Positions 6,192 to 50,404 of a stretch of DNA of 64,000 bases are shown piece after piece. Made by a program: the position numbers and the translations under genes. This DNA is from a plasmid: the sequence record NZ_CP084013.1. One strand, 5' to 3'. Below the pieces are notes generated by a model. The model made no database searches. It was not told the DNA's origin and saw only the letters and a list, made by a program, of their open reading frames with translations. Position 1 is the stretch's first letter. Each line of letters begins with the position of its first letter.

Positions 6192-6489
6192 TCGGGATCT
6201 CCTCCTTGATGCATTCGGGGCATTGCCCGTCCTTCCAGCCGGCCGGATCGATCATGATGTTCGTGCAGGTCGAGCATTCGGGCAGCCGGTGCGCCGGGCA
6301 GTAGTGCATGTCGCGTTCCAATTCGGGATGCTCGTCCTTGTACAGGATCTGCCAGCCGTCATCCTTCGCGTCGAACAGCAGATCGTCCTCGTACGCATAC
6401 CAGTCGTTGATCCGTTGTTCGCAGTTGTGGTCGTCGCATTCGAGCCTGAACCAAGCGCGGCTGTCAAACGTTTCTTTGATTCTTGCCAT
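6178..6489 (-). CDS. hypothetical Cys-rich (zinc-finger-like) protein
   Basis: Start 'MARIKETF' at 6489 is preceded by a GGAGG RBS. Contains 'CDDHNC...HYCPAHRLPECSTC...CPEC'. Confidence 0.45.
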   Translation of the reverse strand: MARIKETFDSRAWFRLECDDHNCEQRINDWYAYEDDLLFDAKDDGWQILYKDEHPELERDMHYCPAHRLPECSTCTNIMIDPAGWKDGQCPECIKEEIPNERS

Positions 6490-8251
6490 CAAGCCTCCGT
6501 TCCTTTGCGTGCGTCCGACGGTATGCGTCGCTCGGCGAGACGTCGGGAGTCGCCGGGCCTTCGACGGCCAGCAAGTCGCCGACATATTCCATATCCACGT
6601 CGCGTTCGTTGAACGCCTTGCGCGTGTACACAAGACGGTTCATGTTGGCGTGGGACAGTACCCAACGCGCTTTCTCCGCGCGTTCGGAATGGTCGTTGTC
6701 GGCAATCGGCCTATCATGCAGGACGGTACGCTTCAACATGGTTCTCAAGCTTTTGACCTCAAGATAATAGTCGGATTTCAGCTTGAACATGTACCCGTCG
6801 GCGTCATACACCACAACGCCCTCACGTGTGGAATCATGACGCTCCTCGTCCAACATGCTCCACAGTGCCTCCCGCTCCTCGTCGGATTGGAAGACGCCCA
6901 ACACCTCCGGCCGGGCGAAGAACCCGTCCATGTCAATCAGCTTGTCGGCGTCATGGTCGATATGGAAGTCCACCGTGTTCCCGATGGCGTGCAGGAACAC
7001 GAGCTGAGACGTATCATACTTGACGATGTGACGGTCGGACTCTTGGTCGATGACCTCGAACGCCAACGTCACGTCGGCATCATGGACGATGTTCCACAAC
7101 GCCTGTTCCTGACCGCCGTCCAACGTCTCCTTGAAGAGCCGTTGTATGAGATACGAGTAGTCGGTCTGTCCGCTCTTCGACCAGAAACGCCACGAACCGT
7201 CTCCGCGTGCGGACACCAAGCCGAGGAACCCGTTCTCCTTGCGTTCCACGCGCACCGGGAACTTGAGACGCTTGTCGATGTTCTCGCGGGTGGTCTGCTC
7301 GTTCTCCCCGAGGTTGAAGAACTTCTCGAATCCTCGTGCCACGACCCTGCCGTTCCCGTCGAGGAACAGGCCGCGCGCCTTGCTGGAATACTCGTCCCAA
7401 CGCTGGTTCTTGAACGCGTCACGACTGAAGTTGCAGGCGTACACGTCGGTCTCGCCTTTGACCGGACGGACGTGTACGTTGTCGGAGTCGCGCATGATGT
7501 CAAGCAGGTTGCTCCCGTCGGCGGAGAAGTCGGCGAACCCGTCTTCGGTCGTATGCGCACCCTGTTCCAGCCACTTCGAGTAACGGTCCAGTGTCCACTT
7601 CACGCCATCCTTGAGCGACGGCATGTCCAAACGGACGGTACCGGTCGCATCACGCCCATTGCTTGAGGCCGCAGTGTAACCCATTTCGGCGTCGTCCACG
7701 GTGCGGGCATTGCCGTCCCACAGCAGTCCCACGTCAACCATCACCGTCTCCCCCATTGGGTTCATACGGTACACGCCGTCCGTCTTCATGACGCGAACGT
7801 TGACCCAACGGCTGTCACGTTCAAGGCACCCATGCCAAGTCTCATACTGGGTGCGCAGATACTTCTCCGGCACACGGTCGCTCTCGACGCGGATCCTGTT
7901 GCGTTCCAGCAGTTCGTCCAACGGCGTGTTGAATGTGAAAGTCTCAACATGCGCCTTGTGACGGACGGCAATCTGCACCTCGTCCACGCAGAAACGCGGG
8001 TTGACATGCTGGGAGTCGCTGATGACATTCACGCCTTTGGCGAGCAGGTCGCTGATGATGGTATGCGCCTGACGGACGAGAATCCTGTTCAACTGTGGAT
8101 TCATGGTTTCATGCCATGCCTGACGGCCTCCCGCCATCATTTCACGCAAACCGTCCAAGCTGACGATTACCGTATTCGAATCGACATGCTTCCGCGCCCA
8201 AGTGCTCTTTCCCGAGCCGGGCAGTCCTCTAAGAATGGTCAAAGTGGTCAA
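6464..8251 (-). CDS. bifunctional polynucleotide 5'-kinase / ATP-dependent RNA ligase (T4 Pnk + Rnl-like), RNA repair enzyme
   Basis: N-terminal P-loop kinase 'LRGLPGSGKSTWARKH'. The central/C-terminal part carries nucleotidyltransferase motif I 'VERKENGFLGLV' (KxNG, the ligase lysine). Apparent TTG start at 8251. Confidence 0.75.
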   Translation of the reverse strand: MTTLTILRGLPGSGKSTWARKHVDSNTVIVSLDGLREMMAGGRQAWHETMNPQLNRILVRQAHTIISDLLAKGVNVISDSQHVNPRFCVDEVQIAVRHKAHVETFTFNTPLDELLERNRIRVESDRVPEKYLRTQYETWHGCLERDSRWVNVRVMKTDGVYRMNPMGETVMVDVGLLWDGNARTVDDAEMGYTAASSNGRDATGTVRLDMPSLKDGVKWTLDRYSKWLEQGAHTTEDGFADFSADGSNLLDIMRDSDNVHVRPVKGETDVYACNFSRDAFKNQRWDEYSSKARGLFLDGNGRVVARGFEKFFNLGENEQTTRENIDKRLKFPVRVERKENGFLGLVSARGDGSWRFWSKSGQTDYSYLIQRLFKETLDGGQEQALWNIVHDADVTLAFEVIDQESDRHIVKYDTSQLVFLHAIGNTVDFHIDHDADKLIDMDGFFARPEVLGVFQSDEEREALWSMLDEERHDSTREGVVVYDADGYMFKLKSDYYLEVKSLRTMLKRTVLHDRPIADNDHSERAEKARWVLSHANMNRLVYTRKAFNERDVDMEYVGDLLAVEGPATPDVSPSDAYRRTHAKERRLDGKNQRNV

Positions 8252-11795: not shown

Positions 11796-11867
11796 TTTGC
11801 AGTTGTTGTGTTTGCGGTCGAATGCGGCTATAATTTATTTTACATATTATGATTGGAGGTGTTTGGT

Positions 11868-12491
11868 ATGCGCACGTATCTTCGGAGGGCCGAGGCGGCG
11901 AACCGTCTGCACATATCGACCACCGCGTTCAAAACGCTCGTAGCCGAGGGGAAAATCAAATACGAGCTGTCGCCCGGCGGGCAGAAGGTGTATGACCCGA
12001 AGGAAATCGACCGTTTCGCCGCCCGCGTTCAGGGTAGGGAGCCGGCGGAAGGCGTTCTCGTGTTCTACGTGCGGGACAGCGAGGGCAACACGACGCGAAT
12101 GAGAAATCAGGAGGAGCGGCTAGAGAAGGCGTATGGCGCTCCGTCAAAAGTGTACCGCGACCGCGCCTCCGGATTGAATGAGAACCGCAAGGGACTGGCA
12201 CGACTGCTCGACGACGCGGAGGAGGGACGTTTCGACCGGGTGGCCGTCACCGCCAAAGACAGGTTGAGCAGGTTCGGCGCATCTTATCTACAACGGCATC
12301 TCGCGTTCCTCGGCATCGACCTGATTGTGTTGGACGGGGAACGGGAGAAGGGGATGATGGACGAACTCATGGACGACTTCATGGCTTTGCTCGCCTCGTT
12401 CTCCGGACGGTTCTACAAGCTGCGCAGCATCGAACATGAGAAACTGCTGCTCGACCGGGCGCGCGAAAGACTGGAGGAGCGTGGAGCATGA
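11868..12491 (+). CDS. tnpA: IS607-family TnpA serine recombinase
   Basis: GGAGG RBS, then an ATG at 11868. MerR-like HTH 'LRRAEAANRLHISTTAFKTLVAEGKIKY' plus a resolvase core 'VLVFYVRDSEGN'. Confidence 0.8.
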   Translation: MRTYLRRAEAANRLHISTTAFKTLVAEGKIKYELSPGGQKVYDPKEIDRFAARVQGREPAEGVLVFYVRDSEGNTTRMRNQEERLEKAYGAPSKVYRDRASGLNENRKGLARLLDDAEEGRFDRVAVTAKDRLSRFGASYLQRHLAFLGIDLIVLDGEREKGMMDELMDDFMALLASFSGRFYKLRSIEHEKLLLDRARERLEERGA

Positions 12492-14146
12492 AAACCGGTG
12501 AAATCGCCTGCGCTGTTCCAGACCTGCACGACTACCGTCTATACGACCACAGGACAGGCGAACCGTTGGACCCGGTGGAGGCCGAAACGCTGCTCTGGCT
12601 GCACTTGGACCATTGCCGGCAATGCCAGAACCGGATGATTCACGACCCGAGGAACCGGAATCTCAAACGGGGCGGAAATGCTGGGAGAGGCAACGAATGG
12701 GCGAGGAAGAACGTCGCCTGCACAAGCCTGCCCTCCAAGTTCAGAAACCTCTCCCATCAGAACCGCGTCAATCAGACCGAGGCCGCCCGACTGCTCCTCG
12801 CATGGCGGGAACGCGAGGACATCGCCACCGCAATCGACGCCATCGGCTGGGAGAAGGCCACCTACGGGAACGTGCAGAAACGTTTGAGCCGGGACATCGA
12901 CCGTGAACTGTTCACGAACGTGCTCAACAGCGGCGGTCATCCAAGCCTGCCCACCGTGGAGCGCACGCAGTTCCCCTACGCGTACTCGAACAACAACTCC
13001 TGCGGCATGTACGTCATCGACCAGCCCGCCGGGGTCATCCGATACGAGCGGATGGCCGTCTACGACAGGTTCGTGGACGTTGAGATATACGCGCCGCACA
13101 TCATGCGCCTGCATCCGAACCTGACGAAGGTGTCCCGGCCCACGCTACGGTGGAACGGGGACTGCGTGACATGGGATGTCATCGTCTTCGAACCAAAACC
13201 CCGCAAAGAGGATGTGAACAAGGTGAGCCACGTCGTCGGCTTCGACCTGAACGCCGACTGGCATGGTGGCATCAGCGGGGCGCGACTCTCCTACAACGGG
13301 ACGGTGAGCCGAGAACTCGTAGCCGGCATCGACACACGCCGCCAGCAAACCGTGTTGGAGGAGCTGTATGTCCAATACCAGCGGTGTTTGAAGAAGCTCG
13401 ACCGGCTCATGCCATGGCAGCGGCCACACGACCCGGACGACCCGCAGCAAGTGGCAGCCCACCCCGAATGGCGGCGACTCTACGAACAGTCGCTCAACCT
13501 CCGGGATAAGATGTACCGCATCAAAACCCTGTTGGACTGGCGGTACGCGCACGACATCACCGACCATGCCAAACCCGGCGAACTCATCGCCGTGGAGAAA
13601 CTTTCCCCGTTCGATGCGGCAGGACGCGTCGAGTTCCGGCACGGCAGCCAACTGGAAAAACTGGAACACGTCGCCTCCAAGACCGGACAGCGCGTGGTGC
13701 AGGTCAACCCGGCGCACACGTCCGCCACCTGCCCGTGGTGCGATACCGTCAACAAGGTCGGCAAAGCCAGACAATACCGGTGCGCAGGATGCAGACGTGA
13801 CATCCCCCGCGACTACGGGTCTGGCGTCAACATCGCCAAACGCGGCGCACGCTATCTCGGACACAAAAACGTCCGACCTACCCCGCCGAAGGGACACGCC
13901 ACACCCAAACGTCCACCGGTCAGACACAAACGACCGGACGAAAAAACACGAGAACTTCTCACACAGATAACGTCAGGAACCGGCAAGGGGCCGGAATCCT
14001 TATGGGCCAAGACCACTCCACTGGAATGGCACATCCCATCGACGGCGACTATCGAGAATACAAGGAACCGACTAGCCCTCGCAAACCAGCGAGACCGGGC
14101 AGCAACGGGGTTACGGCAGAAACCGCAACCACCCCATTCTCGATAA
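12488..14146 (+). CDS. tnpB: IS607-family TnpB
   Basis: 'NPAHTSATCPWCDTVNKVGKARQYRCAGCRRDIPRDYGSGVNIAKRG' forms the zinc ribbon and RuvC-III motif. The start overlaps the tnpA stop. Confidence 0.8.
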   Translation: MKTGEIACAVPDLHDYRLYDHRTGEPLDPVEAETLLWLHLDHCRQCQNRMIHDPRNRNLKRGGNAGRGNEWARKNVACTSLPSKFRNLSHQNRVNQTEAARLLLAWREREDIATAIDAIGWEKATYGNVQKRLSRDIDRELFTNVLNSGGHPSLPTVERTQFPYAYSNNNSCGMYVIDQPAGVIRYERMAVYDRFVDVEIYAPHIMRLHPNLTKVSRPTLRWNGDCVTWDVIVFEPKPRKEDVNKVSHVVGFDLNADWHGGISGARLSYNGTVSRELVAGIDTRRQQTVLEELYVQYQRCLKKLDRLMPWQRPHDPDDPQQVAAHPEWRRLYEQSLNLRDKMYRIKTLLDWRYAHDITDHAKPGELIAVEKLSPFDAAGRVEFRHGSQLEKLEHVASKTGQRVVQVNPAHTSATCPWCDTVNKVGKARQYRCAGCRRDIPRDYGSGVNIAKRGARYLGHKNVRPTPPKGHATPKRPPVRHKRPDEKTRELLTQITSGTGKGPESLWAKTTPLEWHIPSTATIENTRNRLALANQRDRAATGLRQKPQPPHSR

Positions 14147-15801: not shown

Positions 15802-16209
15802 GTGATTGCAGTGGAATTGGAGTCGAATCATCATTCGGTGTTCCTGTTGTATTATCATCTCGTGCTCGTCGTGAAATACCGTCGCAAGGTGTTCGACGAC
15901 ATCGTTTCGGCGCGTGCGCGTGAGATATTCGAGTACATCGCACCCAAGTATGGGATAACCGTTGAGGAATGGAACCACGACATGGACCACGTGCACGTAT
16001 TGTTCCGTGCCCAGCCGAAGAGCGAGTTGAGCAAGTTCATCAACGCTTACAAGAGCGCGTCGAGTCGTCTGCTCAAGCAGGAGTTTCCGCAGATTCGGCA
16101 GAAACTGTGGAAGGAGTATTTCTGGAGCCGCAGCTTCTGCCTACTGACCACAGGAGGCGCGCCAATCGAAGTCATCCGCAAATACATCGAGAACCAAGGC
16201 AGGAAGTAA
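15802..16209 (+). CDS. tnpA: IS200/IS605 Y1 transposase TnpA
   Basis: 'HHSVFLLYYHLVLVVKYRRKVF...EWNHDMDHVHVLFRAQPKSELSKFINAYKSASSRL' contains the HuH motif and a catalytic Tyr, consistent with an IS200-like transposase. Confidence 0.85.
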   Translation: MIAVELESNHHSVFLLYYHLVLVVKYRRKVFDDIVSARAREIFEYIAPKYGITVEEWNHDMDHVHVLFRAQPKSELSKFINAYKSASSRLLKQEFPQIRQKLWKEYFWSRSFCLLTTGGAPIEVIRKYIENQGRK

Positions 16210-16223
16210 GGAGGTGAACCATC

Positions 16224-17345
16224 ATGCAGGTGAAACGTCATTGCGCGGTCAAGTACCGCATGTACCCGAACAGGGCTCAGGCGGCATTGATTGACCGCAC
16301 CATCGGTTGTGCGAGGTTCATCTACAATCAGATGCTTGAAACCCGCATCGGCACCTATAAGGCTACGGGTAAGTCGTGCAATCCGACTCCCGCCCAGTAC
16401 AAGGACAGGTATCCGTTCCTGCGTGAGGTGGACAGCCTCGCACTGTGCAACGCCCAATTGAACGTGGCGAAGGCGTACAGGAACTTCTTCCGCGACCCCA
16501 AGCACATCGGCTTCCCGAAGTACAAGGCGAAGCATCGCAATCGTCAGACCTACACGACGAACAACAGCAATAACAACGTCACCCTCGATGAAGGAGGCAG
16601 GCATCTCAAACTACCGAAAGTAGGGATTGTGCGCGTCCGCCAGCATAAACGCATACCCGAAGACTGGAAACTGAAGAGCGTGACCATCGAGCATTGCAAA
16701 AACGGCGAATACACGGCGACGATACTGTTCGAGTACGAGACCCAAGCACTCGAACCCGTCCGACCCGTGCATATCGTCGGATTGGATTACTCCTCCCACG
16801 GCCTGTACGTGTCCAGCGACGGCGAACGAGCCGACTATTCGCGTTTCTACCGGCGGATGGAGCCACGGCTGATGCGCGAGCAACGTAGACTCAGCCACAT
16901 GGTAAAAGGGTCCGGTAATTGGGTGAAACAGAAGCGGCGCATCGCCAAGCTCGCCGCCAAGGTCGGGAACCAGCGAGCCGACTTCCTGCATAAGACGGCC
17001 AACCGGCTCGCCGCCCGATATGATTGCGTCGGCGTGGAGGACTTGGACATGAAGAACATGAGCCAATCCCTCACACTCGGCAAAAGCACGATGGACAACG
17101 GGTACGGCATGTTCCGCACCATGCTCGCATACAAGCTCGAACGGCAAGGCAAGCAGCTGGTCACGGTAGACAGGTTCTACCCGTCCAGTCAACTATGCTC
17201 CGATTGCGGATACCGCAATAAGGATACGAAGGACCTGCATATCCGCGAATGGACATGCCCTGACTGTGGCGTTTGGCATGACAGGGACGTGAACGCCGCG
17301 ACCAACATCATGCACGAAACACGACGACTCATGCAGGAACGATAA
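16224..17345 (+). CDS. tnpB: IS605-family TnpB
   Basis: GGAGG RBS. 'CSDCGYRNKDTKDLHIREWTCPDCGVWHDRDVNAATNI' forms the zinc ribbon and RuvC-III motif. Confidence 0.85.
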   Translation: MQVKRHCAVKYRMYPNRAQAALIDRTIGCARFIYNQMLETRIGTYKATGKSCNPTPAQYKDRYPFLREVDSLALCNAQLNVAKAYRNFFRDPKHIGFPKYKAKHRNRQTYTTNNSNNNVTLDEGGRHLKLPKVGIVRVRQHKRIPEDWKLKSVTIEHCKNGEYTATILFEYETQALEPVRPVHIVGLDYSSHGLYVSSDGERADYSRFYRRMEPRLMREQRRLSHMVKGSGNWVKQKRRIAKLAAKVGNQRADFLHKTANRLAARYDCVGVEDLDMKNMSQSLTLGKSTMDNGYGMFRTMLAYKLERQGKQLVTVDRFYPSSQLCSDCGYRNKDTKDLHIREWTCPDCGVWHDRDVNAATNIMHETRRLMQER

Positions 17346-18398: not shown

Positions 18399-18428
18399 CC
18401 CGACCATTGCGGTCGGGATATTTTTTTT
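18399..18428 (+). terminator. rho-independent terminator
   Basis: Stem CCCGACC / GGTCGGG followed by ATATTTTTTTT. Confidence 0.6.
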
Positions 18429-18508
18429 GGATATCGCCACCAACCGAAAAACGGGTATTTTCAATAGAATATCGGTTAATAACAACATCAAAATCTATCG
18501 TGGAATAT

Positions 18509-21500
18509 ATGCCACGAGGAAACTTCTACCGTCCAGAAAGCTTTATAAGCCCGGCCAGCGAATACGGGCTGCTCCGTTCTGCCACGCCGGATCGCACCGT
18601 ATGGCTGTACGCGCGCATCCCCTGGAGCACTGCATTGCTGGATGGAGCCAACGACCGGAAACGCAACGATGCCGCGCAACAGCTGATGGCGTTCTTCGAC
18701 GGCCTCGCCAATCAGGTCACGGTTGCCGGTATGCGCTACCGTTACATGCTTCAAAGCGAATATCGCGAATTCCATCTACTCACCGGATCCATGCCCGTCC
18801 GATACAGTCCGCCGGCCAGCATGAGGGACACCGACCTCGGACGATACCAGGCGCAGTACTACCGTAGCCAGAAGGTATGCAAGCAGTTCGCGGTCATCGG
18901 CGTTCCTTTGAAACTGGTCGGGGATCATAGCAACAATCGCAAGCCCGGCATGCTGCAACGCGCCCTGACATGGTACGACCGCATGTGCTATTCGGTGGCA
19001 AACGGATGCCCAATGTTCGAAGAGTATCTGCCAGACGCGCATAATATCGAACGAATCATGCTCAACGCCGGGCTGGAACCATTCACCATCATGGATGAGC
19101 AGGAACGCGAACAGCTGGTCGCCATGATGGAATCATGGTGGGTGGGGCGCGCCAACTCGTCGGCCCTGCCTATCCTGGCGGAGAACGCACACGTGCATTT
19201 CTTCCCGGATAACGCGACCTGCGCCCACGCCAAAAACCTGTACGACAATGGCGTGGACTGCACCGAGTGGAATATCGACGAAGAATACCCGGCCAGCATC
19301 TGCTTCGCACGCACGGCGGATTTCAACCAAAGCAGCATCACGGATCCAAACAACCTGTGGATTGCTAGACTCATGGAAGTCGGACGAGCCGGCGGAGCCA
19401 ATGCGGTCGCCACAAGCATCCGAGGCAAAGTCGAACCGGCGAAAGTCACCGCCGACCAGATTCGACGCAACAGCCGCACCATCGACGAAAGCATTAAGGA
19501 ACGGTACGAGAAAGGCCATGAAGCCCCCGGTGATATGACCGAAATCAAGGAGCGTTTGGATTATAAGAAGGCAATCTACAATACTCCGGACATGCCGCCC
19601 AGCATCATTGATCTGAGCGTCGCCACCTGCGTGGCGGGCAACGAGCAGATGGCCATCGACGCTTTGGGGTGTATCCCCAACATCGAGTTCGTCAATCTGA
19701 CGACGGCTAGCGAACAGTTGATGGCGTTCAAAAGCATGCAGGCCTGTTCGAACGTACGCATGACCCCCTATGAGATCCACTGGGCCGCAACATGCGTCGC
19801 GGGAGGAGGCGTGAGCAGTTTCGCCAAAGCAGGCGACAGGGACGGAGCTCTTGTCGGATTGTCCGAAGCCAACAGGCAACCGGTGTATATCGGGACAACA
19901 ACCGTGCAGGACAAGGACAGGCGTCCAATTTTGGCTATTATCGGAGATACAGGAAGCGGGAAGGCCGTTCACATTTCCTCCACAATTCCGGTTCCCCCTC
20001 AGGCTAGCTTCCCCCATGGAAAAATGGCTAAGATCAGCGATTTGCATGAGGGAGACCTCGTCTACGGGCGGGACGGAAAACCTTATCCACTCCTCAAGCT
20101 TCATCCGATTCACACGGAAGATCTTTACGAAGTCACCCTCAGTGACGGTCAAACGATAAAAGCCAGCGGGAACCACCAGTGGATCGTCTCCGATTTCAAA
20201 GATCGAAACAAATTCAGAAAACCAAAACATTTGAAATCCCAACAGCGTAAGAACATGCTGTCGGAGACATACGATGAGCTATGTCGGATGTCTGATGCGC
20301 TACCGGCCCAATCAACCATGAGCGTGAACGAGCTTGCAGAGTTTGTCCATCCAGTAACGAGTCGTTGGTGGAGCGGAGAGAGCAATGCCAAGACCATTGC
20401 CGCAGCGCTGCGATTTATGGGAGTTGAATCTCATCAAGAACAGCGAGACCGCGCGATAGCGGATACAAAAAAACCTTTTAAGACTCGGCAGAACTGTAGG
20501 CGCTATAACACGCAGGAAGCTCTTCGGGCTTTGATTGCACATTATGATGGCGTGGCGCAGCATGCGAAAAGATGGAACGATCTCGCCAGGGAGCGTGCGG
20601 ATGTCCTAAGAAAGCATTTGGAAGATAACTATCCGAAGGGCATCAGCATCACTGACATACAGAAGATGCTCGAGGATCGTTCACCAAGCCGTTCCTCTAT
20701 CGCATCTGTCATAAAAACGCTCAATCCAATCAGTGAGTGGGATACGGAAGAACGAATTCACTCCGACAGAATGCGTCATGATTCGGTATCCGTATACAAC
20801 GTTCGAGAAGCATGCAGAGCCATAGGGCAACGCATGATGCTTCGTTATGAGGGGGCCTTCAACGAGACCAATTCCCTTGGATATTGTGAACAGGTTGTGA
20901 CTACGCGAGACATGCTTGCGTCTGGTCTAAAGGATTCAGGCAATCGTGCGCAATGGGCAATCCGAGCCGCGATGCCTGTTGCCAACCCGCAAGCCGACCT
21001 GCCACTTGACCCATGGGTTTTAGGGGCTTGGTTAGCCGACGGTAGTATCGGCACTGGAATCATCGCTTCAGATAACAGGAATGGTGATTTGCAGCATGTG
21101 AAGTCCTGTCTCACCTCTGCGGGATTTTCTCTAGGAAGCATCAATACGCCGATGGTCGTGAATGTGAAGGGGCTTGTCTCCATTCTTCGCGATATGGGGA
21201 TACTCCGCGAAAAACGCATTCCTGAGATCTACTTCTCGGCGAGCATCGAGCAAAGACTCTCCCTCGTGCAGGGGTTGCTGGATCAGGATGGGACCATCTC
21301 CTCAAATGGGAATATAGAGTTCACCCAGTCCGCCGATCATCTGCCGATTGTCCGAGGAATGGTGCGCCTGCTGAGATCTCTGGGAATCGTCGTTCACGAA
21401 CCCCATCTCAACAAAGCAGGATACACGGCTGATGGTGTGCGTCACGAGGCTCAGGATCGTTATCGCATCACCTTCACGACGGATCTGCCGGTATTCTCTT

Positions 21501-22828
21501 TGCAACGCAAAGCGGCTTTAATCCCTACGACGTTGAGACAAACCCAGCAATGGCTATACGTCAAAGACATCAGGAAGATATCCAACGCGCCTCATCGTTG
21601 TCTGACCGTTGGAAGCCCTGACCATTCGTTCCTCATCGCTGATTACGTGCCGACCCATAATACGATGGCGGCGTTCAGCCTGTTTCTGCAATGGTCGAAG
21701 ATTGACGCGCGTGACGGTAAAGGCAAGACCCCGTGCATTTACATTAATCCGAAGGCCGGTAATGATTTGGAGGATGCGACCCGTTCGCAGGGTGGTACGG
21801 TCATCCGGTTGGATTCCGATGTGGCCAACGGCACGTTCGACCCGTTCAACGTGATTCCGAATGTGGAGGAGGCCAAGGAAATCGCCGTCCTGATGATGAC
21901 GAACATTCTTGGCGGTGACACAAAGATGGAATCCGCCATGACAGCCATGCTGGATTACGGCGTCAAACACGGGGCGCGTTACGTAGGCCGGGCTCTGCTT
22001 GTCGCCGCCCAAGCTGTTGCGAAGACCATCAAAGCGGGGAACACGGCGGAGTCCATTGGGTTGCCTTCCAACACCCTCGAGGTGTTTTCGACAATCAGCA
22101 TGAACCTGAAGGCGAACCAGGGACTACGTCTTATCTTCGGCACCGATAATGACACCAAGCCGTTGACGATCAGCCAAAACCTGACCCTCATCAATGCCGG
22201 AGACCGTTCACTCATCCCCGAAGGCCAAGATGATTCCATGACCGCTCGCATCCGCCAGTGGACGTTGCGAATGGTCGTCATGGGAGCCGGCACCGCCGTT
22301 CGAGGCCGCGATGGCATGGTAGGTGTCGATGAGGCATGGGTGTTCATGGGCAAGGACAAGGGAGCTTCCCGAACCTTCGAACAATGGGTGCGTATGGCCC
22401 GTTCGCAACGATTCACGCCTGTCATCATCAGCCAGAAAGTGCAGGAGTTCATCGATGCCGACTTGACCGGAGGTATCAGCCGCGCCCTCCTTCTGGCGTT
22501 GGACAACCCGGAAGAAGCCAATGGCACGGTCAGTCCGGCCAAATCAGCGGAACGACTCCTAGGCATCGAAGACCCCAATGGTCGGATCTTGCAGCGCATG
22601 GGAGCCGATGATACTTTGGACAACGGTCAGCCGAACCCGAACAGTCTGAAGCGCCTGGTAAGCGCATCGACGAGGAAGACCGTTCGCGGAGCCGTCGCCT
22701 ATTTCAAAGACGGGTCCAAGCAGCCTATTCCAGTGGAAATCGTGATTCCTCCGGCATTGTTGAAGGAAATCAGCACCACTGCCACGGACAAGATCGCACG
22801 AGAACAACGAAAGAACAAGGAGCAGTGA
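18509..22828 (+). CDS. VirB4/TrsE-like conjugative P-loop ATPase, interrupted by a large intein
   Basis: A split Walker A, 'IIGDTGSGK' ... intein ... 'TMAAFSLF', reconstitutes GDTGSGKT after splicing. Walker B 'VGVDEAWVFMG' follows. The extein is about 870-900 aa. The start at M35 (18509) is preferred, because the ORF-track start at 18407 lies inside the upstream terminator. Confidence 0.7.
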   Translation: MPRGNFYRPESFISPASEYGLLRSATPDRTVWLYARIPWSTALLDGANDRKRNDAAQQLMAFFDGLANQVTVAGMRYRYMLQSEYREFHLLTGSMPVRYSPPASMRDTDLGRYQAQYYRSQKVCKQFAVIGVPLKLVGDHSNNRKPGMLQRALTWYDRMCYSVANGCPMFEEYLPDAHNIERIMLNAGLEPFTIMDEQEREQLVAMMESWWVGRANSSALPILAENAHVHFFPDNATCAHAKNLYDNGVDCTEWNIDEEYPASICFARTADFNQSSITDPNNLWIARLMEVGRAGGANAVATSIRGKVEPAKVTADQIRRNSRTIDESIKERYEKGHEAPGDMTEIKERLDYKKAIYNTPDMPPSIIDLSVATCVAGNEQMAIDALGCIPNIEFVNLTTASEQLMAFKSMQACSNVRMTPYEIHWAATCVAGGGVSSFAKAGDRDGALVGLSEANRQPVYIGTTTVQDKDRRPILAIIGDTGSGKAVHISSTIPVPPQASFPHGKMAKISDLHEGDLVYGRDGKPYPLLKLHPIHTEDLYEVTLSDGQTIKASGNHQWIVSDFKDRNKFRKPKHLKSQQRKNMLSETYDELCRMSDALPAQSTMSVNELAEFVHPVTSRWWSGESNAKTIAAALRFMGVESHQEQRDRAIADTKKPFKTRQNCRRYNTQEALRALIAHYDGVAQHAKRWNDLARERADVLRKHLEDNYPKGISITDIQKMLEDRSPSRSSIASVIKTLNPISEWDTEERIHSDRMRHDSVSVYNVREACRAIGQRMMLRYEGAFNETNSLGYCEQVVTTRDMLASGLKDSGNRAQWAIRAAMPVANPQADLPLDPWVLGAWLADGSIGTGIIASDNRNGDLQHVKSCLTSAGFSLGSINTPMVVNVKGLVSILRDMGILREKRIPEIYFSASIEQRLSLVQGLLDQDGTISSNGNIEFTQSADHLPIVRGMVRLLRSLGIVVHEPHLNKAGYTADGVRHEAQDRYRITFTTDLPVFSLQRKAALIPTTLRQTQQWLYVKDIRKISNAPHRCLTVGSPDHSFLIADYVPTHNTMAAFSLFLQWSKIDARDGKGKTPCIYINPKAGNDLEDATRSQGGTVIRLDSDVANGTFDPFNVIPNVEEAKEIAVLMMTNILGGDTKMESAMTAMLDYGVKHGARYVGRALLVAAQAVAKTIKAGNTAESIGLPSNTLEVFSTISMNLKANQGLRLIFGTDNDTKPLTISQNLTLINAGDRSLIPEGQDDSMTARIRQWTLRMVVMGAGTAVRGRDGMVGVDEAWVFMGKDKGASRTFEQWVRMARSQRFTPVIISQKVQEFIDADLTGGISRALLLALDNPEEANGTVSPAKSAERLLGIEDPNGRILQRMGADDTLDNGQPNPNSLKRLVSASTRKTVRGAVAYFKDGSKQPIPVEIVIPPALLKEISTTATDKIAREQRKNKEQ
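19964..21661 (+). other. intein (566 aa) with a LAGLIDADG homing-endonuclease domain, class-3-like (Ala1, WCT triplet)
   Basis: Starts at Ala, directly after the Walker A lysine. Block B 'ASGNHQW'. Two LAGLIDADG-type motifs, 'LGAWLADGSIGTG' and 'LVQGLLDQDGTIS'. Block F 'HRCLTVGSPDHSFLIAD' has Cys in place of the usual Asp. Block G 'VPTHN' is followed by the +1 Thr. GC content is lower than in the flanking extein DNA. Confidence 0.7.
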
Positions 22829-26634: not shown

Positions 26635-27933
26635 CTATCTGGATGGTTTGCGCCGCCAATAGTCATGCACCGGATGCCCATCACGATCGTGGGAGACGAC
26701 ATGCACCATGCCATTGTCGGGAAGGACGAAGCGTTGAGGACTTGGCATGCCACTGTTCGCGACACGAATCTTGTCCAACAGCTTGGCCTGCAGTTCCGGG
26801 GCCAGATCCATATACGCAGTATGCGCATTCAACCGGACCAAGTCGCTGATGCGGATAGCCTCGTCTCGTGCAGTGTCGGAATCGAATCCACAATAATCAG
26901 CCAACCTCGCATAATGGTCCGGCGTCACTTCACTGGCATGCTCCGCTCCTGAGAATGGCATCGCGAGCTTGTCCGTCAACCCCGGCCATACAGTCGTGGT
27001 CATCACATCGTATGCTGGGCTTAGTTTCCAGGACTCACCATCCAGCGAAGTAGGCATGACTGAATAGTTACGGGCATGCGCATCGCAATTATCGACAGCC
27101 ACGTTGAAGGCCAATCGTCGCAGCCACTCCTCCCCCAGTCTGCCGGACGGATCCATCTTCCGTAGGGTGGTCAGCGTATCGACGGCACTCACCTTGTACT
27201 TCTCGGATGATGGTAGGCCCAATGCCTGCACCATATCCTCCATCGGCAGACGAACCGGCATACCATTTTCGATACGACGATCGAACCGTTCCACGATATA
27301 GGTCTGCTGGCCGTTGAATTCCTGGATATCCGACTCCGGGGTTTCGATGCCGACCATCTTGGAAAGCATCATGGTCGCATGTTCTACTTCATCAGCGTCA
27401 TAAATGCCGGCCGGTTTAAGAATATGAGTCGACGGAACGGCGCCATTGGGCCACACCCATTCATCGCCTACACGGGACAAGGAGAATTTGCCTTGAGCTC
27501 CTGCCAAGGAAAATCTGGCACCTTTGTTCCTGACGAACCATGAATCAGGCGTCCGTTTGACGGCGGCAATACGTGTCGCGATTTCGTCATCGGTTGCTTC
27601 TGCAGGAGGCACACTGGCAATAGTCGGCATCTCATCGTTCCGAGAGAACACCAGCGCACCAGCTGAATCCACGTTTTCCAGCAAGTCGAAGGATTCCTGA
27701 GATTTCGCGCCGACTGCCTGCATCATGGCATACTTGGCGGCACCTGATTCCGGGAGTAAATTTTCTAGAAAATTCTCCGGTGCATCCTCGCGCCACTCTC
27801 CATCTTTCGGGAGGCTGAAACTTATCCGTGGAGCATTCCAATCATACTCAAACGCGACTCCTCGTTTGAGAGAGGTGAACACGCCAACGTGGGAGCCGTT
27901 CATCCAGACGTTTAGCCGATCACCTTTTCTCAT
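26635..27933 (-). CDS. hipA: HipA-family serine/threonine kinase toxin
   Basis: 'LRRLAFNVAVDNCDAHARNYSV' is the HipA catalytic-loop equivalent, and the N-terminal region has HipA-type coupling-domain character. The start overlaps the upstream stop (ATGA). Confidence 0.75.
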   Translation of the reverse strand: MRKGDRLNVWMNGSHVGVFTSLKRGVAFEYDWNAPRISFSLPKDGEWREDAPENFLENLLPESGAAKYAMMQAVGAKSQESFDLLENVDSAGALVFSRNDEMPTIASVPPAEATDDEIATRIAAVKRTPDSWFVRNKGARFSLAGAQGKFSLSRVGDEWVWPNGAVPSTHILKPAGIYDADEVEHATMMLSKMVGIETPESDIQEFNGQQTYIVERFDRRIENGMPVRLPMEDMVQALGLPSSEKYKVSAVDTLTTLRKMDPSGRLGEEWLRRLAFNVAVDNCDAHARNYSVMPTSLDGESWKLSPAYDVMTTTVWPGLTDKLAMPFSGAEHASEVTPDHYARLADYCGFDSDTARDEAIRISDLVRLNAHTAYMDLAPELQAKLLDKIRVANSGMPSPQRFVLPDNGMVHVVSHDRDGHPVHDYWRRKPSR

Positions 27934-28226
27934 GCCACCACGCATTCCGCAGGCAAGGCAGTGGCATCCACTCCAAGAACCTTCATTATCCGTCGAGTCG
28001 GAAGATATGGTGCAACGCCGGTGTCAATCAGCCGTTGCACCACGCTTGAATCGACTCGTGCTTTCTCGGCCACTTCATCGACGGTACGGTGCTGCATGAA
28101 CTCGGCCATGACCCTGCGCATACGTTCCGGTGATTCGATGAATCTCACGTTGCTGGCGGTTTTCGGCATGGCCTGCTTGATGCGCTGACGGTACTCGTCG
28201 CTAACCTGCCATTTCTCGTATATCAT
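27930..28226 (-). CDS. hipB: HTH antitoxin partner of HipA (HipB-like)
   Basis: 98 aa with the HTH 'HRTVDEVAEKARVDSSVVQRLIDTG'. Lies immediately upstream of hipA and is translationally coupled to it. Confidence 0.55.
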   Translation of the reverse strand: MIYEKWQVSDEYRQRIKQAMPKTASNVRFIESPERMRRVMAEFMQHRTVDEVAEKARVDSSVVQRLIDTGVAPYLPTRRIMKVLGVDATALPAECVVA

Positions 28227-48401: not shown

Positions 48402-48524
48402 CGAAACAGGAGACCTCATGCTAATTGCCATCATCTGCCTATTTACGGGCTTCACCCTTGGCTTCTTCACCGCAGCCCTATGCCAAGCAGCATCACACTC
48501 AGATTCTGACAGAAAGGACAACCA

Positions 48525-48707
48525 ATGAAAAACAACTGGTTCTGCCCCAACTGCGGGCAGCCGATGGAAGCGCAACGCCACGTGGACAATCCCACCGGCC
48601 GTATCACATGGACAATCGGCTGCCTCAACCCGAAACACTTCCACACGCGCGGCTACATGAACGCCGCCATCGCCGAAATCCAACTCGAAAAACTCCTCCA
48701 CCAGTGA
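48525..48707 (+). CDS. small zinc-ribbon protein
   Basis: 'WFCPNCGQPM...GCLNPKHFH'. Its stop overlaps the GTG start of the methyltransferase. Confidence 0.35.
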   Translation: MKNNWFCPNCGQPMEAQRHVDNPTGRITWTIGCLNPKHFHTRGYMNAAIAEIQLEKLLHQ

Positions 48708-50404
48708 AATACGTCAGCATCTTCAGCGGCATTGAAGCCGCCACCGTCGCATGGCATCCACTGGGATGGGAGCCGCTGGCCTTCAGCGAAATCGACCCAT
48801 TCCCCTCAACCGTCCTGCAACACCATTACCCGGATATCCCGAATCTTGGAGATATCACGAAAATCGATTGGAGCCCGTATGTGGGAGCAGCAGACATTGT
48901 TGTCGGAGGTAGCCCCTGTCAAAGCTTCTCTGTCGCAGGCAAGAGGGAAGGACTCGCAGGAGCTTCCGGACTCATGTTCGAATACATTCGAGCGGTACGT
49001 GAACTCCGTCCACGTTGGTTTGTCTGGGAGAACGTCCCAGGAGCGTTCACAAGCGAGCGGGGGGAGGCTTACCGCCAGCTCCTGTCAGAGATGGATGCGC
49101 TCGGGTATGGTCTGGCATGGCGAGTATTGGATGCGCAGTTTTTCGGTGTGGCCCAAAGACGCGAGCGTGTGTTCCTTGTTGGAAGTCTTGGAACCATGCG
49201 TTGCGCGGAAGTACTTTTTGAGCGCGAAAGCCTGTCGTGGAATCATCAGTCGAGCCGACAGAAGAGGCAAGCCCTTACCGAAGAGGCTCAGGAACGCGTT
49301 GGAGAAGCAGATCATGATTCTGGCTGCCTGAATCCCGGCGAAACCCAGAGTCGAAGGGTTTATCCGGCTTCCGGCGTATATCCGACGTTGTCCACGAGAG
49401 AAAAGTCAGGGCAAAATCAGGAAAGCGTTTTCACCCAGTTCGGTGATGATGTCGCCGGCACTCTCACCTCACGATACGATAGTTCCCCCTGCGTTGACCG
49501 TGGAGCAAACGTCGTCGTTGACGAACGGGATAAAGTATTCCTTTGCCAGACGGCGCAAACCGGCAGCAACGGGAAACTCGTCAAACAGGACGATGTAATG
49601 AACACGTTGGATCGGACGAACAGCACCGCAGTGGCCGCATTGGACTTCAATCCGACCGATGCCAGACTCCGGTATGCGAATGATGACGTCAGCCAGACAT
49701 TGACCGCACGGGCCGGAACCGGAGGCAACCAAGTCCCATTGGTGCAGGTGCAGCCGCTCGCGTTCCTGTATAACCAAGGTGCGAAGGCCCGGAGTCTAGG
49801 GATAAGTGAAATAAGCCCTACGTTAAAAACCGACCATAATCCGGTTGCAGCATTCGCTTCAAATCAGCGTGACGAGGTTCGTGAACTGGAAGTCGCAGGC
49901 GCATTGGCCGCGCAGCCTGGCATCAAACAGCAGACGTACATCTGCCGGGCCGACGGACAGACGAACGCGATGGAAGGCGAAAATCTCGCTCCCACGTTGA
50001 CCTCGCACGCGAAGAAGGATCCACCGCTCATCTATCCTGCTGAAGATTCAACCGGGGAAGATGAGCCTGTCACCTCGCAGATTCACGGCGGGAAACCCGG
50101 CGGCGGGAAAGGTGCCTTAATCCAACGGGATATGAGCGCCACATTGTCCACTCATAACACCCAGACGCCGATAACAGGCGACCACGAGAAGAGAGATCTC
50201 ACCGTCCGTCGGCTGACACCACGAGAATGCGAACGCTTGCAAGGCTTCCCCGACGATTACACCGATATCCCATACCGCAACAAGGAACACGCTCCGGACG
50301 GTCCCCGTTACAAGGCGTTGGGCAACAGCATGGCCGTACCGGTCATGCGATGGATCGGAGAACGCATTCGGACGGTCGAAGAAGCCGCCGAAACAACCGA
50401 TTAG
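48704..50404 (+). CDS. dcm: DNA (cytosine-5)-methyltransferase (Dcm-type), apparently orphan
   Basis: Motif I 'VSIFSGIEAA', motif IV 'GGSPCQSFSVAGKREG' and motif VI 'VWENVPG'. GTG start at 48704. No restriction endonuclease gene is evident nearby. Confidence 0.8.
   Translation: MKYVSIFSGIEAATVAWHPLGWEPLAFSEIDPFPSTVLQHHYPDIPNLGDITKIDWSPYVGAADIVVGGSPCQSFSVAGKREGLAGASGLMFEYIRAVRELRPRWFVWENVPGAFTSERGEAYRQLLSEMDALGYGLAWRVLDAQFFGVAQRRERVFLVGSLGTMRCAEVLFERESLSWNHQSSRQKRQALTEEAQERVGEADHDSGCLNPGETQSRRVYPASGVYPTLSTREKSGQNQESVFTQFGDDVAGTLTSRYDSSPCVDRGANVVVDERDKVFLCQTAQTGSNGKLVKQDDVMNTLDRTNSTAVAALDFNPTDARLRYANDDVSQTLTARAGTGGNQVPLVQVQPLAFLYNQGAKARSLGISEISPTLKTDHNPVAAFASNQRDEVRELEVAGALAAQPGIKQQTYICRADGQTNAMEGENLAPTLTSHAKKDPPLIYPAEDSTGEDEPVTSQIHGGKPGGGKGALIQRDMSATLSTHNTQTPITGDHEKRDLTVRRLTPRECERLQGFPDDYTDIPYRNKEHAPDGPRYKALGNSMAVPVMRWIGERIRTVEEAAETTD

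Follow-up and report, generated by a model that had tools for sequence, protein, structure and literature searches.

A large class-3-type intein with a LAGLIDADG endonuclease very probably splits the Walker A motif of a VirB4-like ATPase on a Bifidobacterium longum megaplasmid

A stretch of 64,000 nt from plasmid record NZ_CP084013.1 was analysed (the window, to which all coordinates refer), and within it a gene for a VirB4-like ATPase whose Walker A motif is interrupted by an insert of 566 codons. This insert is very probably a class-3-type intein with a LAGLIDADG homing endonuclease, located at the GK/T site of the motif. The full explanation, in which class-3 splicing is active and the homing endonuclease is still active as well, is considered likely.

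The insert occupies positions 19964-21661 (+) and reads AVHISS...DYVPTHN in translation. The 20 codons on its 5' side end in ...IIGDTGSGK (the sequence preceding the insert, as translated: ...RRPILAIIGDTGSGK), and the codons on its 3' side start with TMAAFSLF. N-extein, insert and C-extein form a single open reading frame (ORF) from 18407 to 22828 (+), and translation from the probable start codon, the ATG at 18509, yields 1439 amino acids, equal to the length of the RefSeq coding sequence (CDS) on the near-identical plasmid NZ_CP146883. The original prediction, which had been made from the letters alone, was correct in the coordinates and flanks of the insert, as 566 stop-free codons lie between GDTGSGK and T. 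The motifs that it cited, ASGNHQW, LGAWLADGS, LVQGLLDQDGTI, HRCLTV (with Cys546) and THN, were all found where it had placed them. Its estimates of about 100 kDa for the spliced product and about 62 kDa for the intein were near the computed 96.1 and 63.7 kDa; the precursor has a predicted mass of 159.8 kDa. The lower GC content that it had noted for the insert was also seen (51.2%, compared with 55.8% and 56.8% for the parts of the gene on either side), and the GC content at third codon positions (GC3) was 0.55 in the intein and 0.68-0.70 in the exteins. Two minus-strand ORFs, at 19133-20242 and 20845-21219, overlap the insert and were treated as by-products of GC-rich coding sequence. The features of the gene are as follows.

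18509..22828 including the stop codon, open from 18407 (+): host gene, VirB4-like ATPase precursor, 1439 aa, 159.8 kDa (ORF list, RefSeq CDS length).
18509..19963 (+): N-extein, 485 aa, ending in Walker A residues 1-7, GDTGSGK, at 19943-19963 (translation, alignment with insert-free homologues).
19964..21661 (+): putative intein, 566 aa, 63.7 kDa, Ala1-Asn566.
19964..20002 (+): block A region, AVHISSTIPVPPQ, with Ala1 in place of an N-terminal nucleophile.
20141..20191 (+): block B, SDGQTIKASGNHQWIVS, with His71 (B:10) and Trp73 (B:12) at 20174-20182, both conserved in every one of the 22 alleles.
20195..20998 (+): extra region of about 268 aa that separates block B from the endonuclease (intein residues 78-345).
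20999..21523 (+): predicted LAGLIDADG homing-endonuclease domain (Pfam Hom_end; PI-SceI by sequence and fold).
21020-21046 (+): LAGLIDADG motif 1, LGAWLADGS, residues 353-361, with Asp359.
21263-21298 (+): LAGLIDADG motif 2, LVQGLLDQDGTI, residues 434-445, with Asp442 (GLLDQDGTI).
21593..21661 (+): blocks F and G, HRCLTVGSPDHSFLIADYVPTHN.
21599-21601 (+): Cys546, position F:4, proposed initiating nucleophile.
21653-21661 (+): Thr564-His565-Asn566, positions G:5-G:7.
21662..22828 (+): C-extein, 388 aa and stop codon (AAA_10 match).
21662-21664 (+): Thr+1, final Walker A residue and proposed acceptor of the splicing branch.
Intein-free junction, candidate endonuclease target: GCTATTATCGGAGATACAGGAAGCGGGAAG^ACGATGGCGGCGTTCAGCCTGTTTCTGCAA.

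A search with the protein spliced in silico returned 79 homologues. About 45 of these were insert-free proteins of 840-910 aa that read G-x-x-G-S/T-G-K-[ST]-M at the insertion point, and 21 homologues, which together with the window copy were 1328-1472 aa in length, bear an insert exactly between K and T. Removal of the insert in silico extended the Pfam AAA_10 match from profile positions 76-308 (34.4 bits) to 19-308 (47.7 bits, E 1.5e-12), the cut-off being 27.5 bits. Excision restores the Walker A motif GDTGSGKT, as had been predicted: the restored motif agrees with that of the insert-free homologues, and the AAA_10 match lengthens. A search of related replicons for intein-less alleles had been proposed, and such alleles exist among these homologues and in plasmid pMP7017. 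Both observations that the original prediction had named as contrary to an intein were looked for; the homologous inserts were found to keep the intein blocks, and Walker A was reconstituted in the alignment. An interpretation of the insert as a fused domain was rejected in view of these conserved splicing blocks and of the many close homologues without an insert. The P-loop Lys/Ser or Lys/Thr junction is described as a "classic" intein site (PMC5050341, PMC2807308), and P-loops house most class-3 inteins (PMC2807308).

The published criteria for class 3 include a non-nucleophilic residue 1, Ser or Thr at position +1 and an obligatory attack by the block-F Cys (PMC2807308, PMC5222942). Further criteria, given by Tori et al. 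in 2010, are a Trp at B:12, two residues after His B:10, and a Cys at F:4 (PMC2807308). Alleles were compared for 22 inteins, that of the window included, which were 32-90% identical to the window intein. The first residue was A in 14 alleles, L in three, E in three, H in one and Q in one, and never C, S or T, in keeping with the Ala reported for the window. P9, P11 and Q13 of the block A region were almost invariant. His71 and Trp73 (His71-Gln-Trp73 in the window) were kept in all 22 alleles, as was Cys546, which stands within R-C-[LI]-[TS]-V and was aligned by phmmer with the F:4 position of PI-SceI. Thr564 was present in 21 alleles and replaced by Ser in one, while His565 and Asn566 occurred in every allele. 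The WCT triplet that the original prediction had recognised, Trp B:12, Cys F:4 and Thr G:5, was thereby confirmed. Every one of the 22 intein-bearing alleles had Thr at +1, where the insert-free homologues have Ser or Thr. Every sequence feature of class 3 is present in the window intein, and class-3 chemistry is predicted from them.

Splicing by a route other than class 3, with the +1 residue attacking the N-terminal junction directly, as it does in the class-2, KlbA-like inteins, or with a nucleophile that was not recognised, is highly improbable. Class-2 inteins by definition lack the WCT triplet (PMC2807308), of which W, C and T are conserved here, although an Ala as first residue is shared with class 2. 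The +1 residue here is Thr. None of the WCT inteins tested so far could dispense with Cys F:4 or initiate splicing from the +1 residue (PMC2807308, PMC5222942), and class-3 DnaB inteins are among the solved Hint domains that come nearest in sequence and fold.

Class-3 identity also agreed with the results of database comparisons. A phmmer search of the PDB gave PI-SceI with E 4e-7, in an alignment that reached the terminal HN, and the class-3 MchDnaB-1 and Msm DnaB inteins with E 3.5e-6 to 6e-4. By tblastn the intein matched the terminase region of mycobacteriophages Thibault, Optimus and Baka with 35% identity (E 7e-27). Comparison with intein profiles, for which the original prediction had called, yielded a Hom_end match above its cut-off. 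An AlphaFold model of the intein, built from 15 alleles, had a mean predicted local distance difference test score (pLDDT) of 87.5, and Foldseek matched it to PI-SceI with E 6.8e-16. The N-terminal half of the Hint domain was superposed on 6rix, 6riy and 6bs8 with a root-mean-square deviation of 1.5-1.6 Å over 75 residues; the Hint fold was thus recognised in a predicted, not a solved, structure. A protein search and a scan of one genome per species showed that almost all distant relatives of the intein carry HxW, a Cys at F:4 and THN followed by S or T. They are inserted after the P-loop GK of ATPases that include DnaB, terminase, PhoH, RuvB and FtsK, and most belong to Actinomycetota. Profile scans of all six frames of the window found no second intein.

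For the exteins of two intein-bearing alleles the ratio of nonsynonymous to synonymous substitution rates (dN/dS) was 0.05. The corresponding intein ratio is uninformative, because the synonymous sites of the intein are saturated between the lineages for which DNA was available. Residues G479, G482, G484 and K485 of Walker A and D708 and E709 of Walker B were invariant among 30 homologues. Strong purifying selection on the exteins and the retention of both Walker motifs indicate indirectly that a functional ATPase is made, for which the intein would have to splice. A permanently fused domain or an inactivating insertion, which would leave the ATPase without a working P-loop, is accordingly most improbable. 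The sub-threshold score with Pfam Intein_splicing would agree with such an absence of splicing, and a class-3-like intein pseudogene is on record, Arth_1007 of Arthrobacter FB24 (PMC3196547); on the other side stand the catalytic positions, which are invariant across 22 divergent alleles, the low extein ratio with its conserved ATPase motifs, the intact ORF and the size of the window-type allele cluster, which with 3027 member sequences is common and not a dead end.

The mechanism proposed for the intein follows the class-3 pathway that was worked out with the inteins of MP-Be DnaB, Msm DnaB-1 and Bvi IcmO. In the 160-kDa precursor the Walker A motif would be split and ATP presumably not bound. 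Cys546 at F:4, aided by His71 and Trp73, would attack the Lys-Ala1 bond to form a thioester branch, and the hydroxyl group of Thr+1 would then receive the N-extein. Cyclisation of Asn566 would free the 64-kDa intein, and an O-to-N shift would produce the 96-kDa ATPase with the whole GDTGSGKT motif. The freed intein would act as an endonuclease and cut intein-free alleles at the same site, and repair from an intein-bearing copy would convert the cut alleles. For such homing a conjugative plasmid would offer opportunities. It is a reasonable inference, already drawn in the original prediction, that DNA transfer would depend on splicing.

The endonuclease domain was recognised by Pfam Hom_end (PF05204) with 24.5 bits (cut-off 21.1, E 3.2e-5); PF14528 scored 17.0 bits, below its cut-off of 22.5. 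Two LAGLIDADG motifs had been predicted, and both are present with an acidic residue in each. Asp359 and Asp442 were each kept in 21 of the 22 alleles, the exception being P0027, which is shortened and degenerate. The extra region of about 268 aa in front of the endonuclease was predicted to contain mixed helix and strand and was confidently modelled; neither Pfam nor the PDB yielded a significant sequence match to it. By analogy with the extra region of PI-SceI it may serve as an accessory module that helps to bind DNA. In the deletion variants P0016, P0017, P0019, P0020, P0023, P0027 and P0049, 90-105 residues of the extra region are gone; residues 160-264 (20441-20755) correspond to the stretch that is absent from natural intein variants. 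These deletions and the loss of both Asp residues in P0027 look like stages of decay towards a mini-intein.

The comparison of alleles also gave signs of mobility. The extein of the intein-free P0015 was 99.4-99.7% identical to the exteins of the intein-bearing P0016-P0020. Between the window and P0002 the exteins were 99% identical and the inteins only 50%. Outside a cluster at the junction the exteins of these two alleles were 97% identical at the DNA level. Of the 50 DNA differences in the N-extein, 12 fell within the 33 nt that immediately precede the junction (binomial p ~1e-9), and three of the 30 differences in the C-extein within the first 12 nt (p 0.004). The differences at the junction are silent, because the two proteins are identical across these stretches. 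Such clustered silent differences look like a co-conversion tract left by homing. Intein-bearing alleles were dispersed over at least nine extein lineages. The presence or absence of the intein in close relatives, the exchange of intein lineages, the clustering at the junction and the lower GC3 point to recent homing. Activity of the endonuclease and gene conversion of intein-free alleles would be consistent with these sequence patterns.

It is alternatively conceivable, though unlikely, that the intein splices while its endonuclease is dead, so that it is a vertically inherited and tolerated passenger whose presence and absence reflect old events and ordinary plasmid recombination. Against this stand the retention of both catalytic Asp residues in 21 of 22 alleles whose overall divergence is about 50%, the concentration of silent differences within about 35 nt of the junction in exteins that are otherwise nearly identical, and the close identity of the intein-free allele with intein-bearing ones. 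P0027, without both LAGLIDADG Asp residues, and the several alleles with internal deletions of 90-105 aa would fit a dead endonuclease.

Several points weigh against the interpretation as an active class-3 intein with homing endonuclease in a VirB4-like transfer ATPase. The Pfam Intein_splicing score of 16.3 bits stayed under the cut-off of 35.8, a shortfall to be expected when a class-3 Hint domain is divergent and interrupted by about 470 residues. We infer splicing, the branched intermediate and DNA cleavage all from conservation. The only family member shown to conjugate, pMP7017 (PMC10832533), is without the intein. Curated VirB4, TrbE and TraC models of NCBIfam gave no significant match to the extein when the full protein, the insert and insert-free homologues were searched; the best matches were TrbE with E 2.8e-4 over about 50 residues and EccCb of the type VII secretion system with E 1e-3. 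VirB4-like is nevertheless a fair label in view of the predicted fold of a homologue and the gene context.

Sequence searches with the extein found no VirB4 match, and the assignment was therefore drawn from structure prediction. The single extein sequence had no match among PDB sequences, and a profile of 30 extein sequences gave only a weak match to the P-loop of FtsK. The insert-free homologue P0004, which is 78% identical, was modelled with a pLDDT of 86.8 and a predicted template modelling score (pTM) of 0.83. This model matched TrwK/VirB4 of R388 with E 2e-21 over about 950 columns, with both domains aligned, and VirB4 of Thermoanaerobacter with a template modelling (TM) score of 0.68; the VirB4 matches ranked ahead of HerA, TrwB and FtsK. 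The likeness to R388 TrwK and to VirB4 of Thermoanaerobacter pseudethanolicus is one of fold, the C-terminal ATPase domain being aligned with 4ag5/4ag6 at this TM score. Identity to these two proteins is just 11-15%, and the role of the host protein in conjugation is predicted. In the spliced protein Walker A lies near residue 480 of 873. The VirB4-like nature of the host that the original prediction had proposed thus stands by predicted fold, whereas no curated sequence model matches. In the neighbourhood, a CHAP/lysozyme hydrolase is encoded two genes downstream, FtsK/TraB-like ATPases at 30.6-36.6 kb and a RepA_C protein at 28.9 kb, these last two kinds within 12 kb; no relaxase, VirB6 or VirB8 was identified.

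Plasmid p1 of Bifidobacterium longum DS1566 (NZ_CP146883, 193 kb) matched the region with 99.5% identity, and three further B. longum megaplasmids did so with 98.9-99.6%. The window belongs to a B. longum megaplasmid of the pMP7017 family. Plasmid pMP7017 of B. breve is described as the first conjugative plasmid, and also the largest, to be characterised in the genus (PMC10832533); its homologous gene encodes an intein-free protein of 885 aa and has AGT as the +1 codon. In RefSeq the intein-bearing gene (L001 4110-8429, WP_338715536.1, NZ_CP146883) is named "ATP-binding protein", with no intein annotated. In PLSDB these megaplasmids are classed as non-mobilizable, in contrast to the conjugative behaviour of pMP7017. 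A short distance upstream of the ATPase operon lie an IS200/IS605 element at 15802-17345 (tnpA 15802-16209, tnpB 16224-17345) and an IS607-like pair at 11853-14146, made up of a serine recombinase (11853-12491) and a TnpB-like protein (12488-14146). Cargo genes of the window encode an AAA_33 kinase fused to a T4-type RNA ligase, which may be an RNA-repair enzyme (6464-8251, minus strand), a HipA-family toxin kinase (26635-27945, minus strand) and a C5 cytosine DNA methylase (48425-50404, plus strand).

Related inteins were also encountered at other sites. Three related full-length WCT inteins occur in the genome of Xylanimicrobium pachnodae (three contigs, L008, L012 and L014), each in a different P-loop protein; among these hosts a single one is VirB4-like. 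In two distant members of the VirB4-like family, P0078 and Isoptericola croceus (L083 2501-3949), a related WCT intein follows a conserved DPK motif (..IFDPK/ALALDT...THN/S.., with slashes at the junctions) about 30 residues downstream of an intact Walker A. On these sequences the VirB4-like family has a second putative intein site, after the DPK motif.

The closest known systems include the class-3 P-loop inteins of mycobacteriophage Bethlehem DnaB, of DnaB-1 from M. smegmatis and M. chimaera (6bs8, 6rix) and of the mycobacteriophage TerL1-a terminases. Shared with the window intein are the lack of a nucleophile at position 1, the pair His B:10 and Trp B:12, Cys F:4, the residues Thr G:5 and Asn G:7, and a Ser or Thr at +1. 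Unlike the DnaB and terminase inteins, the present one is hosted by a VirB4-like transfer ATPase on the plasmid of a gut anaerobe. With 566 aa and its extra region of about 268 aa it is also large, whereas the solved DnaB-1 inteins are mini-inteins without endonuclease. PI-SceI, the yeast VMA1 intein, ranked first in the fold comparison (E 6.8e-16, target TM 0.64) as well as in the sequence search (E 4e-7), and likewise consists of a Hint domain interrupted by a LAGLIDADG endonuclease with added material beside the Hint domain. However, PI-SceI belongs to class 1, having Cys1, Cys+1 and a Gly at F:4, is only 14% identical and resides in a eukaryotic V-ATPase.

The original prediction had regarded an intein in a conjugation ATPase as uncommon, but examples are already on record and the P-loop site is a classic one, with no oddity in it. 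The Bvi IcmO intein from a plasmid of Burkholderia vietnamiensis G4 was shown experimentally to be class 3 (PMC5222942), and Table 3 of Novikova et al. (2016) contains five VirB4 (COG3451) inteins from Firmicutes and Proteobacteria (PMC4760082). Like the present intein these occur in type IV secretion or conjugation ATPases on mobile elements. The Bvi IcmO intein differs in that it is a mini-intein of 142 aa with Cys+1 and has the flanks ARSLGF/.../CITFA instead of the GK/T site of Walker A. None of the catalogued VirB4 inteins is from Actinomycetota. In the literature no paper was found that links an intein to a Bifidobacterium plasmid, and the one study of pMP7017 that was searched for the word has no mention of one (PMC10832533). 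The intein is a new, unannotated example of a well-known type of element, and its mechanism and site are textbook for class 3, which leaves the general understanding of inteins unchanged.

The class-3 P-loop intein of M. smegmatis DnaB-1 is reversibly blocked by oxidation through a disulfide on the catalytic Cys (PMC6195587). Residue 544, two positions before Cys546 (residues 544-546 span 21593-21601), was His in 12 and Cys in seven of the 22 alleles. The resulting H-R-C or C-R-C pair (H-x-C/C-x-C) might trap the nucleophile in a disulfide or bind a metal. By analogy the intein could be a post-translational redox switch on the transfer ATPase of an oxygen-sensitive gut anaerobe, a speculative idea that is improbable at present. 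If it were true, the redox state would govern the assembly or activity of the plasmid's transfer ATPase, and the intein would be more than a selfish passenger.

To our knowledge, no large conjugative plasmids other than the pMP7017-type megaplasmids are known from Bifidobacterium. These are widespread among B. longum of the human gut, the window-type allele cluster alone having 3027 members. Their ATPase gene may or may not bear a mobile insert of 1.7 kb, which matters for plasmid comparison, for cloning of the gene and for coverage-based scoring of the plasmid "backbone". The gene also offers a natural view of intein turnover on a plasmid, with alleles that lack the intein, two lineages of it that occupy one site, a further site after the DPK motif and decaying variants. 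For the class-3 inteins as a group, it provides a candidate for a large member that would function in an anaerobic Gram-positive host.

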